Shown piece after piece: positions 13,694-61,879 of a DNA stretch of 64,000 bases. This DNA comes from a phage. How positions within the stretch are numbered: the first letter of the stretch is position 1; each line of letters starts with the position of its first letter. The position numbers were made by a program, and so were the translations under genes. Under the pieces are notes generated by a model. It saw nothing but the letters and a program-made list of their open reading frames with translations, had not been told where the DNA came from and did no database searches. The stretch lies in the sequence record PZ445530.1; one strand, given 5' to 3'.

Positions 13694-13852
13694 ATGATCC
13701 CCCTGGAAAATGTAGCTATTAATGACGCTGAGGCTATCGCCCTGGTTGAAAAGGCCATGGCGGGAGCGTTGGAACATAAAGAAGAGTACGAAAAAATGAT
13801 GGTTAACCTGGCAGGGCGGCGGCAGGTGGATTCTATCATAAAAATAATTTAA
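13694..13852 (+). CDS. hypothetical small protein (52 aa)
   Basis: Short ORF below track cutoff; weak SD. Confidence 0.3.
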   Translation: MIPLENVAINDAEAIALVEKAMAGALEHKEEYEKMMVNLAGRRQVDSIIKII

Positions 13853-15800: not shown

Positions 15801-16046
15801 ATGGCAGCACTAATCACCAAATATTATGCCCCTACCAACACCAAAAGCGCCCGTATCATGGTAAAAGGCTTCGGACGTAAAAAGGTTTACACCTGGGATT
15901 ATGCCTTAGACATGGAAGACAACTACACCAACGCGATGACCGATTTTATTAATGATCTGAACACGCGGATCTTGACAAATTATAAAATTACCGATATTGC
16001 CTATATAGGGGAAGGCGGGATCTGTTTTGTCGGTATCGTCAAATAA
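15801..16046 (+). CDS. hypothetical protein
   Basis: SD agaggag. Confidence 0.5.
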   Translation: MAALITKYYAPTNTKSARIMVKGFGRKKVYTWDYALDMEDNYTNAMTDFINDLNTRILTNYKITDIAYIGEGGICFVGIVK

Positions 16047-16095
16047 GCTGTTTTTTCGGTGGTCCTGGTAGCAGGGCCATCTATAAAGATAGTTT
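16047..16095 (+). promoter_or_regulatory. Variant hairpin-promoter unit
   Basis: ttttttcggtggtcctg-gtag-cagggccatc + tataaagat; diverged copy of the 15090 unit. Confidence 0.35.
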
Positions 16096-16121
16096 ATCAA
16101 CACAATGAAAGGAGAAAGTAC

Positions 16122-16469
16122 ATGATCAGCGGGGCAAGTTTTATTATTGGCGCTATTGCTACGGCTTTAATTGTAAACAAGATCCAATCTAAAAACGAAA
16201 AAGAGAGCAACGCGCTCACAGAATACCCATTTTGGGTATTCAACGACAATGAAGACTACATTATCAAGTACAAGAATGAGAAGGGCGACCAGGTAACACC
16301 GCGACCGATCCCGGCCTACAAGATGCAAGAAACACTATACCGCCTAAAGGCTGGAGGCGCAAAAATCGTAGACTTTTGGGGATATGATTGCAAGGATCAG
16401 GAGGTTATAAAACGGCGTATCCGGGCTATTCAGGCCAATATTGAAGTTAGCAAGGGGGGGAATATATGA
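16122..16469 (+). CDS. hypothetical protein with N-terminal membrane anchor
   Basis: SD aaaggag before ATG 16122; hydrophobic N-terminus. Confidence 0.5.
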   Translation: MISGASFIIGAIATALIVNKIQSKNEKESNALTEYPFWVFNDNEDYIIKYKNEKGDQVTPRPIPAYKMQETLYRLKAGGAKIVDFWGYDCKDQEVIKRRIRAIQANIEVSKGGNI

Positions 16470-16663
16470 AGATTAATTTTGAGAAGATTGTAAAGCGATC
16501 TCATGATTCCGAAGAGCTGCCGGAACGACGCCAACGTAACAATAAACTGAATAAGCCAAAAAGATTTGGAAAGATCTGGCGAAATCATTATGATCGTAAA
16601 TTGCCTGGCCTACTTTTGGAACGTGAACGACAGGCAGAACGATACCGCCATAAAGACAAATAA
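16466..16663 (+). CDS. Small basic protein
   Basis: SD aagggggg; Arg/Lys-rich. Confidence 0.5.
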   Translation: MKINFEKIVKRSHDSEELPERRQRNNKLNKPKRFGKIWRNHYDRKLPGLLLERERQAERYRHKDK

Positions 16664-16671
16664 CAACCAAC

Positions 16672-16701
16672 GCCCCCGCCATTGTGCGGGGCTTTTTATT
16701 T
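16672..16701 (+). terminator. Intrinsic terminator
   Basis: ccccgc-cattgt-gcgggg hairpin followed by ctttttattt. Confidence 0.6.
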
Positions 16702-16822
16702 CTATCCTACGAATAGCGCCCCTGGTTGGCCCTGTAAGCGCCAAAAAGGCCCCACCTATGCAATCGCCCCCTTTAACCTGAAAACATCGCCCAGGGCCGT
16801 TTCATGGCGTTAAAAATATCAT

Positions 16823-16850
16823 TGACATCGTCAACAGGTTAGCTATACTA
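16823..16850 (+). promoter_or_regulatory. sigma70-type promoter
   Basis: ttgaca - 16 nt - tatact. Confidence 0.55.
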
Positions 16851-16881
16851 ACCACATCAAAGAGAGAAAGGAGTAAACGCC

Positions 16882-17142
16882 ATGCGTAAATTAAAAAATT
16901 TTGATAAAGTTGATGTTGTCCTGAATAATTTTTACTACTGCAACAACAAGGCCATTTGGTGGCGTGATAGTTCCACCGATAAAGTCAAGGCGCGCTTTCT
17001 CCAGGGGCACTGGCAAGGCCGCCCAGTGATTAAAATCATGGGGCAATTGGTAGCGTTTAAAAATTGCCGCCGTGTTGATGACGTTGAGGAGATTTTAAAC
17101 ATTTTGCGCCACAATAATTTAAAAAATAGTGTTGACAAGTAA
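16882..17142 (+). CDS. hypothetical protein
   Basis: SD aaaggag. Confidence 0.5.
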   Translation: MRKLKNFDKVDVVLNNFYYCNNKAIWWRDSSTDKVKARFLQGHWQGRPVIKIMGQLVAFKNCRRVDDVEEILNILRHNNLKNSVDK

Positions 17143-17216
17143 ATCTCAATAAGTATAATTAAACACACAGGCGGGAAAACTTACCGCCACTAACAAAGAA
17201 AACAGGAGAAAATATC

Positions 17217-17297
17217 ATGACCACCGTTAACATTACCACAGGTTACAATTTATCTTTCGACGTGCTGACCGATGAACAAAAAAGAAAAAGCTATTGA
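17217..17297 (+). CDS. Short leader ORF (26 aa) at the canonical cassette start, out of frame with the downstream long ORF
   Basis: Promoter ttgaca..tataat, leader hairpin ggcgg-gaaaactta-ccgcc and SD caggag all point to ATG 17217; frame ends at TGA 17295-17297 after an A6 run. Confidence 0.3.
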   Translation: MTTVNITTGYNLSFDVLTDEQKRKSY

Positions 17298-17841
17298 AAT
17301 GGTCCGCGAAAGAGAAGAACACAGCGGGGATAACTTTTTTGCAGAAAGTGTAATTGAAGACTACAAAGAACATATCTTTCCAGAGTATGGCCTTGAAGAT
17401 ACCAAGGTACATTGGTCCGGCTTTTGGTGCCAGGGCGACGGCGCGTCAATCAGTGCGGAAAACGTGGATTTAGAAAAATTCTTGCGTAAAGTCAAGTCTC
17501 TGACTAAATTCCGCTCAATTCGTCACTTGTTCGGCACAATGCACGATGGCGAGCTATCCGCAAGTGTTGAGCGTGATCCATATAGCCGCTATAGTCACGA
17601 AAACACTGTAAGCGGGTACATCGATACTACATGGCTAGACCTGACAGCCAAGCAAGAAAGTAAGGTTGAAGAGCTGGAAGAGTTGATCACCGAGAACGTA
17701 CGGGAACTATCCCGCAAGGTTTACGTAGACCTGGAGCAAGCTTATCTTGAACAATTTACTACCGAAAACCTGATCGGCCTTATCGAGGCCAATGATTGGC
17801 GGTTTGATGTGGATGAATATGGAGAGATGAGTTTTTCATAA
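17272..17841 (+). CDS. hypothetical protein (start uncertain: 17272, 17299 via TGAAATG coupling, or 17217 if the A6 run is an indel)
   Basis: Long ORF; no SD of its own at 17272. Confidence 0.45.
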   Translation: MNKKEKAIEMVREREEHSGDNFFAESVIEDYKEHIFPEYGLEDTKVHWSGFWCQGDGASISAENVDLEKFLRKVKSLTKFRSIRHLFGTMHDGELSASVERDPYSRYSHENTVSGYIDTTWLDLTAKQESKVEELEELITENVRELSRKVYVDLEQAYLEQFTTENLIGLIEANDWRFDVDEYGEMSFS

Positions 17842-17931
17842 ATAAAGTGTTGCAATAATCTAAAAACCTGCTATATTAAAACTCAAGGGGCAAGACGTTT
17901 GCCCCCCACACAAAACAAAGAGGAAAACATC

Positions 17932-18312
17932 ATGAAAAACACTACTAAAGCTATTGACACCGTCATGTTTAACCTGGTTACCTTTCGCGAGGATATGAAA
18001 GATCTTCCACGTGAAACAGTGTGCGATCACATTGAAAACTATCGCAAACTAATCAAAGAGTTGCCTTTAAAACGTGATCAGTATGCGGCTAACGCCATGC
18101 TTAATGCCATGATCAAAAAGATGATCCAGTGTGATTTAACTCTGGCCTATGACTATGCGGGTGGTCGTTTTGCAGTATACAATCAGCCCGTGCCCGGTAT
18201 GGGCACCACCGAAGAATTGCACGCGTTAAATCTGAAGCAAGATGTATGGGATAACATGCCCCGCGTGGTGGTGTGGGCAGAAAGCGGAAAGATTTACGGC
18301 GATAATTTTTAA
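17932..18312 (+). CDS. hypothetical protein
   Basis: SD aagagga; leader hairpin ggggcaa-gacg-tttgcccc. Confidence 0.55.
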   Translation: MKNTTKAIDTVMFNLVTFREDMKDLPRETVCDHIENYRKLIKELPLKRDQYAANAMLNAMIKKMIQCDLTLAYDYAGGRFAVYNQPVPGMGTTEELHALNLKQDVWDNMPRVVVWAESGKIYGDNF

Positions 18313-18376
18313 TCAGGTAACAGGCGGCATATTTGCCGCCTTATTGTTAAACAGAGCTGCAAAAGAGGTACATAGA

Positions 18377-18748
18377 ATGGAATTTATTATTTTGGCTGTA
18401 GTAGTTGCCTTGTTCAACGCCTGGATAGCTGGCAAAATAGGTAGATCCGCTTTTCTATGGTTTGTTATATCTATTTTCCTGGGAGTGGTTGCAACCATTG
18501 TACTAGTTATCCTTGCAATTGTTGACAAGGATAATAATAAGAAGGGTAAAGTATTTTCCGACCTGTATGACGCCCAAACTTTTGTTAACGCCTATTATAG
18601 TGATCTTCCGGTCTCCTTGCGCTGCAGCCTGGCGCAACAAGTTTTTGATGAGGCTAAAACCAGAGATCAAGCCCATGAGATATGTTTAACTGAGGCGGAT
18701 CGCCTATTTGAGAGGAATAGAAAATATGTGGGCCAGCCGTTTAAATAA
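18377..18748 (+). CDS. Membrane protein (two predicted TM segments)
   Basis: SD aaagagg before ATG 18377; hydrophobic stretches. Confidence 0.5.
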   Translation: MEFIILAVVVALFNAWIAGKIGRSAFLWFVISIFLGVVATIVLVILAIVDKDNNKKGKVFSDLYDAQTFVNAYYSDLPVSLRCSLAQQVFDEAKTRDQAHEICLTEADRLFERNRKYVGQPFK

Positions 18749-18971
18749 TACCACGTTAATTAATCCCTTTAGTGAAGATTTGAAGCCAGCCGCCTGGCGT
18801 GATGGATTCAATAACGAACGCTTTATTTTCAAGCCTGATCTTGAGGAATTTTATAACAATGGATCGAACAACAGCGGAGATAATTTTTCTTGGGATGTGC
18901 GTGGTGATGGTACTCCTGGGGGCCATTGTAAACCACGTCACTACTACCAGGAGGAAAGGGGGAGACGATGA
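18726..18971 (+). CDS. hypothetical protein
   Basis: ORF; weak SD. Confidence 0.4.
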   Translation: MWASRLNNTTLINPFSEDLKPAAWRDGFNNERFIFKPDLEEFYNNGSNNSGDNFSWDVRGDGTPGGHCKPRHYYQEERGRR

Positions 18972-19087
18972 CAACCAAGGATAAGCCCCGTACCGATAAG
19001 GCGCGCCGGGTTATGGTATGGCTTGAGATCATCGCCCTTGAAATATTGCTAGGCGTAGGGATGTACTTTATCGCTGTAAGTAACTAA
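18968..19087 (+). CDS. Small membrane peptide (39 aa)
   Basis: SD aggagg; hydrophobic WLEIIALEILLGVGMYFIAV. Confidence 0.3.
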   Translation: MTTKDKPRTDKARRVMVWLEIIALEILLGVGMYFIAVSN

Positions 19088-19091
19088 GAAC

Positions 19092-19120
19092 GGCCCCCGA
19101 TCATGGGGGCCTATCTTTTT
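19092..19120 (+). terminator. Intrinsic terminator
   Basis: ggccccc-gatcat-gggggcc hairpin followed by tatcttttt. Confidence 0.6.
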
Positions 19121-19229
19121 AAAAAATTTCCCTTTCAGGGTGTTGCAATCCGGTCCGCAATATGGATAATAACAATCAACGGGGAAACATCCCCGCCACA
19201 CAAACAAAAGCCCGAAGAGGAGAAAGAAG

Positions 19230-19429
19230 ATGAGCAACAATATCCGCGTTATTAACTTCAAAAAGAAGAAAAAATTGCCGTGCTGATTGACGGTCAAGAA
19301 ATCTTCAAGGGCGACTATGAAGATCATCAAACGGCGATTAGTATCACTCGCGTGATTGGTTATCATAATTTCTACCCCCAAGGCGCTGAGGCAGCAGTTA
19401 AACGAATCAAAGAGATTGTAGGCCTGTAA
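19230..19429 (+). CDS. Small protein gene interrupted at an A6 run (frameshift or indel)
   Basis: Canonical start 19230 reads 18 codons to TGA; the remaining 52 codons continue in the -1 frame from the A6 run at 19269-19274. Confidence 0.35.
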
Positions 19430-19430
19430 A

Positions 19431-19478
19431 ATTTATTTTTAGATGGCCTTGACTTCAGGGCCATCGATAAAGTAAATT
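19431..19478 (+). promoter_or_regulatory. Hairpin-embedded promoter/operator unit (copy 3)
   Basis: tttattttta + gatggcc-ttgacttcag-ggccatc + gataaagtaaatt. Confidence 0.5.
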
Positions 19479-19522
19479 TAAACCCTGTTAAAATACCACG
19501 CAGTTAACAAGGAGTGATAGAC

Positions 19523-19822
19523 ATGTTTATCCAGGCTAATAATCTTTATTTCTTTGATGGTCAGATCGTAGATGGTGTGGAAGTGGAGATCACCGGGTGC
19601 CCTGGTGGTCAGGCTATGACTTTCCGGAATAATGCCTTTGATGATTCTCATATCGTTATGAGAATGGAAGTTACGAAGCTGGACGACAAGAAAACACTTA
19701 TTGACTATTCTGTGAAAGATCATCCAGACTACCACATGATCTATGGTGATTTGTGCATTGTTGACCGTGACAAGGTGGGCGGCATTGTGATCGCTATTGT
19801 GAACGATGTTTTCTCAAACTAA
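19523..19822 (+). CDS. hypothetical protein
   Basis: SD aaggag before ATG 19523. Confidence 0.5.
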   Translation: MFIQANNLYFFDGQIVDGVEVEITGCPGGQAMTFRNNAFDDSHIVMRMEVTKLDDKKTLIDYSVKDHPDYHMIYGDLCIVDRDKVGGIVIAIVNDVFSN

Positions 19823-19839
19823 TTTCAGCAGGTGATTTT

Positions 19840-20190
19840 ATGAAAGTAAAACTATATTACCTTAATGAGCTTAACCCCCTTGCCCAGGTCCGCGCCCTGG
19901 CTAATACCTTGATTTGTGAGAAATCTGTATATTGTGTTGAGCTTAACGCCATGCGTGAACGTCTCAAAGGTGGTTACTTTGACATCCATGCTGCAATCAA
20001 CGGCCTGAATATGGAATTTATCCGCTTACGTAACAACAGCCGGAATCTGGCAAGAATGGAACAAGATCCGGCCCACCTTCGTAAGCTGGTTATTGAAAAT
20101 CATCTGATGTTCAATGCCGAGGGTGATTATTACCATTTTCACCGCAAACGTTGGTACCGTGGCGGCAATACAAGCAAGAATGCAAAATAA
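19840..20190 (+). CDS. hypothetical protein
   Basis: ORF. Confidence 0.5.
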   Translation: MKVKLYYLNELNPLAQVRALANTLICEKSVYCVELNAMRERLKGGYFDIHAAINGLNMEFIRLRNNSRNLARMEQDPAHLRKLVIENHLMFNAEGDYYHFHRKRWYRGGNTSKNAK

Positions 20191-20225
20191 GGCCCCTAGC
20201 AGGGCCTGCAGCGATATAATCACAT

Positions 20226-20260
20226 AAAGGCTATGCGGTTGCATGGCCTTTATTATTTTA
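20226..20260 (+). terminator. Terminator-like hairpin
   Basis: aaggctatgc / gcatggcctt stem followed by tattatttta. Confidence 0.4.
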
Positions 20261-20392
20261 GCGTTACAGCGACCCCTAAGGCGCTTAAAAAATTTTTTAA
20301 AGAAGTACTTGCATCAAGCCCTACAGTATGGATAATAGGACGTGTCGGGGGGCGGCCCCCAATCATTAACCGGATAGATAGGAGTTAAAACC

Positions 20393-20677
20393 ATGGCTAT
20401 TGTTACCGCTGGCGATGTAGTAGAAATGGAAGCAAAATACTTAAAAGCGGGTATGCATATCCTACGCAACGATCTTGAACTGGTCCTGACAATGGTTGAC
20501 TATAACCCAGGGCAAGATTATCCAAGTGTTGACTACTTTTTTGAGTATGTTGATGAAGAATTAAAAGAGGATGAGGCTTATCAGGGCGAATTCTGTAATT
20601 TCTTTTGCTCTGATGAGGTTGTAAAAGTTATCTATCAACCTGGCGTACCTTTCCCGCTGCACGCTATCAATAAATAA
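20393..20677 (+). CDS. hypothetical acidic protein
   Basis: SD ataggag; upstream TG-extended -10 (tggataat). Confidence 0.5.
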   Translation: MAIVTAGDVVEMEAKYLKAGMHILRNDLELVLTMVDYNPGQDYPSVDYFFEYVDEELKEDEAYQGEFCNFFCSDEVVKVIYQPGVPFPLHAINK

Positions 20678-27927: not shown

Positions 27928-27979
27928 TAGTCTTCCTCCAGGTTCAAAGGCCCTAAGATTTCATATGCCAGATTAGAAG

Positions 27980-28258
27980 TTACCAGAGGGTCTTCTGCAT
28001 CTTTAGTATTATACCACCCGTGAATAACCAGAGTCCCACACTCTGTTTCATATCTAACTGGAACTGTTCTGCAGTTTCCTCATCCATCTCTAAGATCTCC
28101 ATAAGGTACTTGATGTTAGGAAGGTATGCAGCTGTTACAGTTCCCTCTACCAGACCTTCGGGCCAACCTACATCCGGATGACAAGTAGGAACCAGATTAG
28201 TCAGCTTAATAGTGTACGCTTTTTCTGCACGAGCCTTCAGTAACGGGTCAATCTTCAT
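27980..28258 (-). CDS. hypothetical protein
   Basis: ORF. Confidence 0.5.
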   Translation of the reverse strand: MKIDPLLKARAEKAYTIKLTNLVPTCHPDVGWPEGLVEGTVTAAYLPNIKYLMEILEMDEETAEQFQLDMKQSVGLWLFTGGIILKMQKTLW

Positions 28259-57331: not shown

Positions 57332-57865
57332 TTAAAGTTCCATAAAGTTTTCTACAGTTTCAATAAATGCTTTATCAGAGAAAGCGTCAACAGCACCGTT
57401 AAACCATACAGGGATCCCGCGATCCTCATATTGATAAAGGTCGCTACGTGAAATGCCACTTCCATCTGCACTCTGCGAATCATACTTGTTTACAATCAGC
57501 AGTTTTGTGCCTTTACAAGTAGCAGGAAACAATTCCCAGTTAAAATTAATAACTGTGTTAGAACAACCTACCAGGATCACCATATCATTGCTTGTGAGAG
57601 ATGTCAACAGGTCATACATGTCTGTATACTTAGGAGCAACCTCACCGAAGAACACTACATTGGGCTTAACCCAGGTATACTTGCCTGTATCTACCTCCGT
57701 GTATCCGATATTTTTAATTACATCATTACCTTCAGCATCTTCGTAGGTGATTTCAGGCAAATACCCGTGGACATGTAAAATATCTTCATGTTTTACACCA
57801 GCACGCTCCAGCAAATCATCTACATTGGTAGTAAGGTTGATCACACGACCAGACCAGCGGGTCAT
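57332..57865 (-). pseudogene. Sir2-family protein fragment lacking the N-terminal NAD-binding motif
   Basis: Sir2 motifs LTTNVDDLLERAG, HVHG, KPNVVFFGE, LVGCSNTV present; GAGIS region absent; no SD; stop 5 codons upstream in frame. Confidence 0.5.
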
Positions 57866-58924: not shown

Positions 58925-59429
58925 CATAAAGAATATAACTAAAATAACTAAATAATAAAAAATAAAAGATCTAGTACTTATGGTACTAAGTACATATACT
59001 TAACTTATGTAGAATATACTAGATCCTAAGTACCATGTTTTAAATTTATTACTTACTATGGGCAGTGTCGGCCCTTCATTGGCACTCGCCTACGAGGGGC
59101 GAGATGCCGGGCCTCCTTGGTGCACACAATAACAGAAGTTCATACATGCAGGTCTGTTAACATGTGTGGGAGCGAAGCGATAGCGCAGGCCAAAGGCCGA
59201 GCACTGATGTGGACCACCGACGAAAGCTTGCCAGCGCCGTAAGGAGTCGGTTGAGAGTCTCCCGCGCGAGCTTGGATGAAGTTTATGTGTGGAAACTGAC
59301 AAGAAGGCCCCTAAATCGCTCCACAGCTATATAAACTATACCAGGTAATGCAATCGCACCAGTTTGATAGAAAAGCTCGTTACAAAGCGATACAGTGAGT
59401 TTTTCTATAACTTGAAGAGGGGGGCAGCT

Positions 59430-61774: not shown

Positions 61775-61871
61775 GCTAGGTAAGCCCTTTGGCAAGGGCG
61801 AGGATTTTTAATCCTGAAAATAGACGAGGTAGTCGTTGAATACATAGGTGGTTCGATTCCATCACCTAGCA
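61775..61871 (+). ncRNA. Aberrant tRNA-like element (97 nt)
   Basis: Acceptor gctaggt/acctagc and T-arm ggtgg-ttcgatt-ccatc are canonical, but anticodon arm folds as aggat-tttta-atcct (5-nt loop) with about 30-nt extra arm. Confidence 0.3.
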
Positions 61872-61879
61872 CCTTTTTT

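Follow-up and report, generated by a model that had tools for sequence, protein, structure and literature searches.

In a stretch of phage DNA of 64,000 nucleotides (nt; sequence record PZ445530.1), hereafter called the window, two small early genes related to ORF185 and ORF179 of phage rV5 are each split into two open reading frames (ORFs) by a one-base change in the length of an A run. The changes are opposite in direction, as the initial annotation of this DNA had reported: one base has been gained in the first gene (+1; site 1, 17217-17841) and one has been lost in the second (-1; site 2, 19230-19429). We found that both lesions exist, that they are derived and private to the window, and that they cluster with other private run-length changes without any accompanying substitutions. 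Their cause is probably an error of base calling or consensus building in a poor stretch of roughly 13.8-19.3 kilobases (kb), a technical origin that we infer from comparison of assembled sequences. The phage itself probably encodes both proteins intact. All coordinates refer to the window, and features lie on its plus strand unless stated otherwise.

Two early genes split at A runs

Matches to GenBank phage records identified the source as an rV5-like E. coli phage of the genus Vequintavirus. Positions 16800-19800 matched 121 phage records at 90-96% identity, all of them rV5-like Vequintaviruses, and the remainder of the window matched the same genus at 94-98% identity. In phages isim, AlexBoehm, navn, Murica, and rV5, the ORF185-like gene is a single coding sequence (CDS) of 624 nt encoding 207 amino acids (aa; ORF185 in rV5), and the ORF179-like gene is a single CDS of 201 nt encoding 66 aa (ORF179 in rV5). 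The short ORFs of the window share their ribosome-binding site (RBS) and ATG with these annotated CDSs.

At site 1, the ATG at 17217 opens an ORF of 26 codons that ends with the TGA at 17295-17297 (17217-17297; peptide MTTVNITTGYNLSFDVLTDEQKRKSY) and forms the N-terminus of the 207-aa gene. The rest of that gene is a 189-aa ORF in the +1 frame (17272-17841). The lesion lies in the A6 run at 17278-17283, which is A5 in every relative read, so that the window carries a +1 insertion. Translation after removal of one A gave an unbroken 207-aa protein spanning 17217-17841, and the initial annotation had described the two ORFs, the run, and the fusing deletion just as we found them. It had also proposed that the stop codon overlaps an in-frame ATG. 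An ATG in frame with the long ORF is indeed present at 17299-17301, but the two codons are adjacent rather than overlapping, with one base between the TGA and the ATG (17295-17301). If the site-1 lesion is real, this TGA-A-ATG arrangement could permit coupled reinitiation, which would give a 180-aa product. A 95-nt query for site 1 matched 114 phage records, none of them identical. The best matches had 98.9% identity, with a one-base gap as the sole difference, and among the matches listed the record span was one base shorter than the query in every case.

At site 2, the ATG at 19230 opens an ORF of 18 codons that ends with the TGA at 19284-19286 (19230-19286); this is the true N-terminus of the ORF179-like 66-aa gene, which the frameshift separates from the rest. 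The remainder of the gene lies in an open -1 frame (19256-19429), within which the mechanical ORF call begins at the GTG at 19280 and covers 49 aa. The initial annotation had correctly recognized the 18-codon ORF, its continuation in the -1 frame, the A6 run at 19269-19274, and the restoration of the frame by an A added there, but it placed the lesion in that run, 9 nt downstream of the true position. All relatives examined, those from GenBank included, have A6 at 19269-19274, apart from one separate lineage, known from three metagenome assemblies, which has A5. The missing base belongs to the run at 19260-19264: all relatives read have A6 there, and the window, with A5, therefore carries a -1 deletion at this position. 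The two repairs also differ in their products: one A added at 19260-19264 yields MSNNIRVINFKKEEKIAVL... and ...FKKEEKIAVL..., which is the family sequence, whereas one A added at 19269-19274 yields ...FKKKKKIAVL..., in which the frame is restored but the family sequence is not. A 101-nt query for site 2 matched 120 records, with 0 identical and best matches of 99.0% identity with one gap column. Among the matches listed, the record spans were longer than the query by one base, and in one case by two.

The repaired proteins align with PHROG profiles over nearly their whole lengths, residues 4-205 of the 207-aa protein on positions 2-200 of 201 of PHROG 5162 and residues 1-66 of the 66-aa protein on positions 1-66 of 66 of PHROG 12347. 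These are families of unknown function, and they were the only matches obtained. Searches of Pfam, NCBIfam, and PDB with both proteins gave no significant match, and an Rfam scan of 16000-20500 returned no known RNA element or frameshift element. More than 110 relatives have both of the broken genes in conserved, intact form, and on this ground we rejected a chance pattern of ORFs.

The early region in which the two genes lie consists of small genes in a row, and each has a sigma-70-like promoter and an RBS to itself, often with a terminator; 33 promoters of this type have been described in rV5 (PMC3606486). The cassette of the first gene has a sigma-70-type promoter-like site at 17132-17159 (TTGACA, 16-nt spacer, TATAAT; 12/12 matches), and that of the second has a promoter-like site at 19143-19170 (TTGCAA, 16-nt spacer, GATAAT; 9/12 matches).

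Private alleles and neighbouring run-length changes

Comparison with the homologous loci of related phages, a check that the initial annotation had itself proposed, returned single uninterrupted ORFs in all relatives and left both window alleles private. Read at base level, 11 relatives from GenBank or IMG/VR and 7 more contigs from ENA or Logan have an A5 run at site 1 and two A6 runs at site 2. In 7 ENA/Logan contigs in which the neighbouring 116-aa protein is identical, the 207-aa and 66-aa genes are all intact. The two-ORF arrangement was found in 0/114 records for site 1, in 0/120 for site 2, and in none of about 20 contigs, and pattern scans of IMG/VR for alternative alleles returned only two contigs, both with intact alleles. 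The exact truncated products of 189 and 180 aa are absent from a collection of 15 billion proteins, and a 92-aa truncated product is likewise not on record. We also considered whether the site-2 lesion is common to rV5_ev168 and A51.2, for which CDSs of 150 nt/153 nt are annotated as against the 201-nt gene. This was rejected, as the DNA reads A6 plus A6 and the annotators had picked other ORFs.

The nearest relative, ENA ERZ1305919 NODE_37 (137 kb, 17× coverage), shows 0 substitutions relative to the window over 16597-20647 and differs from it by four indel events only. Three of these are run-length differences, at 16673 (C5 in the window, C4 in the contig), 17278 (A6 vs A5), and 19259 (A5 vs A6). 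The fourth is a GC dinucleotide at 19001-2, where the contig, and not the window, differs from all others. This private 2-nt deletion of NODE_37, at the equivalent of window positions 18999-19004 (GCGC vs GCGCGC in the window), breaks a gene for a 39-aa membrane protein (window 18968-19087), and no 39-aa gene is called on the contig.

The C5 run at 16673-16677 is private to the window, with C4 in the 11 relatives aligned. It falls in the 5' arm of a terminator-like hairpin, the 3' arm of which keeps G4, so that the change is uncompensated. A second private run, G7 at 16454-16460, is G6 in 8 relatives and G5 in one, and it replaces the final ...GGIYED of a 117-aa gene by ...GGNI, each followed by the stop codon. 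A third, G3 at 13814-13816 in a 58-aa gene, is G4 in isim, rV5_ev168, and NODE_37, the three relatives that cover it. Adding one G at 13814 gives a C-terminus of AGAAAGGFYHKNNLK, homologous to the AGAAAGEFYPKNNFN of the relatives, both running to the stop codon. An interpretation of the 13814 difference as a mosaic boundary was rejected, as the added G restores this homologous C-terminus. Further run-length differences between genes within the block, for example in the C run at 17902 and in the T run at 20293, recur in some relatives and are ordinary polymorphisms.

The 25 kb at 39-64 kb served as background. Here, five relatives differ from the window by 418-567 substitutions each, and the only private indel is at 59419, where a G6 run directly upstream of an ATG (59419-59424) is G5 in all five relatives compared. 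At this background rate, four private run-length changes within 2.8 kb have a Poisson probability of ~6e-6. Per 25 kb, the natural ratio in the same genomes is 6-13 indel events for about 420-570 substitutions.

Error, recent mutation, and recoding

Under a local sequencing or assembly error, an A5 run would have been miscounted as A6 at 17278-17283 and an A6 run as A5 at 19260-19264. We favour this explanation because the changes are private, single-base, confined to runs, bidirectional, alike in coding and non-coding DNA, free of substitutions, and clustered. Among the three options raised by the initial annotation, namely homopolymer sequencing error, programmed frameshifting, and short leader ORFs, it is the best supported, above all by the block of zero substitutions relative to NODE_37. 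Each length change is private while the nearest relatives hold the family consensus, and run-length indels are in excess over substitutions, with three private run changes and 0 substitutions in 16597-20647, in addition to the changes at 16454 and 13814. The affected positions include a terminator stem and the 3' ends of genes. This pattern is similar to that of homopolymer consensus errors in flow-based, nanopore, or low-coverage data, in that the changes are single-base and bidirectional, lie in mononucleotide runs of 3-7 bases, belong to one record, and fall in coding and non-coding DNA. It differs in that the changes are confined to about 5.5 kb instead of being spread over the roughly 300 runs of at least 5 bases in the window.

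Several observations weigh against an error. The case for it is built on assembled sequences and is indirect. A general error acting on so many runs should yield many more frameshifts, and all large genes are intact (145 isim proteins aligned to the window); the error model therefore needs a local drop in quality. Moreover, both genes are dispensable or fragile in nature, having been broken independently in other phages, and the window has a private 2-nt insertion at 28040 that does not lie in a homopolymer. Finally, the near-identical NODE_37 has its own 2-nt deletion, which makes real slippage possible on such a time scale. All in all, the two splits are probably no real feature of the phage, and at most a pair of ordinary frameshift lesions.

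These observations lead to the principal alternative, which we consider unlikely: genuine, very recent replication-slippage mutations would have pseudogenised two dispensable early accessory genes, and low-level slippage could restore the wild type at both. Rescue would take a -1 slip of tRNA-Lys at site 2, on the new C_AAA_AAG 7 nt before a predicted stem, and a +1 slip of tRNA-Lys on AAA_A at site 1. Truncated products might also arise by coupled reinitiation, from ATG 17299 (site 1) and GTG 19280 (site 2). A slip at either site would recreate the exact family sequence, a stable fold is predicted downstream of site 2, A_AAG is a -1 shift-prone tetranucleotide in E. coli, and leaky 'savior' indels have been documented (PMC5009743). 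The frame-junction peptides that would report such rescue are ...LTDEQKEKAIEMVR... and ...VINFKKEEKIAVL.... Genuine mutation would also fit the distribution of damage within the window, where lesions occur only in small accessory genes and the large replication, nucleotide-metabolism, and terminase genes are all intact, and where other lesions look natural (a 2.08-kb deletion common to two Logan assemblies and the private AC insertion at 28040).

Both genes have, in addition, been broken independently elsewhere, often at runs. The ORF185-like gene is frameshifted in magaca (T8 replacing C plus T6), in Logan ERR12080297 (T7), and in vB_Eco_Alma (an extra C), and two of these three breaks lie at the T run that matches window 17334-17339. 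The 66-aa gene carries A6 plus A5 in the one lineage from three metagenome assemblies (99.9-100% identity), the mirror of the A5 plus A6 of the window, and in phiWec193 and other sequences it is frameshifted near the C-terminus or has lost codons by an in-frame deletion. Streisinger slippage at the A/T runs of phage genes, as at the T4 rII hot spots, which turns dispensable accessory genes into pseudogenes, offers a model for such events. The window lesions are similar to it in being ±1 changes in A5/A6 runs of small early genes, and in that the same two genes are independently frameshifted in other Vequintaviruses, several times at A or T runs. They are unlike it in that several events are found here with zero substitutions relative to the nearest relative, a combination not expected of natural divergence. 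The natural ratio given above is far from that of four to five private run-length changes to zero substitutions over about 4 kb, one of these changes unbalances a terminator stem, and another alters the C-terminus of a third gene. The absence of the exact 189- and 180-aa products from the protein collection also speaks against genuine truncation, and the phage-encoded tRNA-Arg(UCU) makes a ribosome pause at the zero-frame AGA of site 1 unlikely.

If the lesions were real, both genes might further be slippage-prone contingency genes of the Vequintaviruses, with A/T runs that would repeatedly toggle them off, as in magaca, a Logan assembly, the lineage from three metagenomes, and this phage, and with off alleles that would be leaky in the manner of a 'savior indel', since one tRNA-Lys slip recreates the exact wild-type protein. 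The benefit would perhaps be that the phage evades a host defence by which these early proteins are sensed. We regard this proposal as very unlikely. A phase-variable contingency locus is marked by on and off run lengths that recur at one tract in natural populations; the 66-aa gene has a second off allele, in the one lineage from three metagenomes, and the window allele was seen nowhere else.

Evolved recoding signals, by which programmed +1 (site 1) and -1 (site 2) frameshifting or transcriptional slippage would set the ratio of short to long product, are exceedingly improbable. Both sites are slippery A runs, and at site 1 the run is followed in the zero frame by AGA, a rare codon in E. coli. 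At site 2, the deletion produces C_AAA_AAG in the zero frame, and a stable mRNA stem-loop is predicted at 19273-19338 (-21.2 kcal/mol, z = -3.1), beginning 7 nt past this motif. The predicted stem is long-range and lies inside the 66-aa gene, and 0/200 shuffles fold equally well. However, it sits in sequence common to relatives with an intact gene, and it is therefore no evidence of a recoding signal or of adaptation to the shift. Site 1 has no notable downstream fold (z = -0.7), and its AGA is decoded by the phage tRNA-Arg(UCU). The canonical motif is X_XXY_YYZ for -1 shifts and, for +1 shifts, a slip codon followed by a slow codon or a stop. We found that C_AAA_AAG at site 2 allows A-site A_AAG slippage only and that site 1 reads AAA_AGA; both permit slippage and neither is a full canonical motif. 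Efficient transcriptional slippage usually needs roughly 8-9 or more A/T. The runs here are A6 and A5, below that length, and the frame split that they accompany is unconserved.

A recoding site is defined by conservation of both the shift site and the split frame. The relatives carry single ORFs of 207 and 66 aa, none of the records and contigs compared has a split frame, and the nearest relative differs from the window at both gene sites only by the lesion bases. Since the window alleles are not conserved in relatives, an evolved recoding site is ruled out, and the programmed frameshifting that the initial annotation had listed is not supported. Comparison with known systems leads in the same direction. 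Site 2 is similar to dnaX-type -1 frameshifting (A_AAA_AAG with a downstream stem-loop) in its C_AAA_AAG and the predicted stem 7 nt on, and a -1 slip would give the wild-type protein. Unlike dnaX, the first base of its heptamer is C instead of A, which makes P-site re-pairing imperfect, it has no upstream Shine-Dalgarno-like stimulator, and the arrangement is conserved in no relative. Site 1 is similar to prfB-type or hungry-codon +1 slippage in that the P-site AAA can re-pair at +1 on AAA with the rare AGA in the A site. It differs in having neither an in-frame stop at the shift site nor an upstream Shine-Dalgarno-like element, in that the phage supplies tRNA-Arg(UCU), and in that the arrangement is unconserved.

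That the ORFs of 26 and 18 codons encode regulatory leader peptides, with separate genes downstream, is hardly credible: although each short ORF has the cassette RBS and start and ends by a possible restart (TGA-A-ATG at 17295-17301; GTG 19280, which precedes TGA 19284 by four bases), both encode the N-terminal residues of conserved proteins, with PHROG profiles that match from residue 4 (site 1) and residue 1 (site 2), the relatives annotate one CDS from the same ATG, and a separate leader ORF occurs in none of the 114 and 120 matching records.

Other features of the window and significance

Several further observations were made in the window and its relatives. Compared with isim and rV5_ev168, the window lacks about 2.08 kb at 57853-57861, with a 9-nt overlap at the junction. 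This deletion removes the N-terminus of a phosphoesterase, an RNA ligase, a 116-aa gene, and the N-terminus of a Sir2-like protein, together with an adjoining 136-aa CDS (annotated as phosphoesterase or 3'-phosphatase/polynucleotide kinase). The 57.85-kb junction is spanned by 0/122 GenBank records, and it recurs at 99.1-99.2% identity in two Logan assemblies, ERR14020395 and ERR16009830. The deletion is therefore a natural allele. For the same reason, its presence in two independent assemblies, we rejected the idea that it marks a laboratory-decayed genome.

At 28040-28043, a private AC insertion (CCCACACTCTG vs CCCACTCTG in a relative) frameshifts the 109-aa orthologue of isim_207, a minus-strand gene at 27930-28258. 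This 2-nt insertion is not a homopolymer change and is absent from all 118 matching records. In the phage tRNA cluster, between tRNA-Ser and tRNA-Thr, ARAGORN called a 99-nt 'tRNA-???' with a four-base anticodon (atcc) at 61775-61873; the same call appears in the annotation of slur12 and is labelled 'tRNA-OTHER' in isim. In rV5 (DQ832317), two single-base insertions private to that record and separated by 37 nt (equivalent to window ~19572 and ~19609) explain why the neighbouring 99-aa gene is annotated as ORF178 plus ORF177.

The A and T runs of the window end at six bases, with 21 A6, 38 T6, and none longer, while the stretches counted in isim and rV5_ev168 have one or two longer T runs each. 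An artefact that cuts homopolymers off at six was considered and rejected, given that isim and rV5_ev168 have nearly the same ceiling. In the intergenic terminator tail upstream of the 66-aa gene, some relatives (rV5, an IMG/VR contig, and Murica) have runs of A10-A14. Together, these run lengths suggest selection against long runs within genes.

The main value of these results is as a flag on sequence quality: before the DNA is annotated, both split genes, and probably the lengths of three runs nearby, need correction or verification, and the splits should not be presented as recoding or as leader peptides. Should the alleles be genuine, they would strengthen the evidence for repeated inactivation of the ORF185-like and ORF179-like early genes in Vequintaviruses, and would mark both as dispensable or counter-selected accessory genes of interest in relation to host defence systems.

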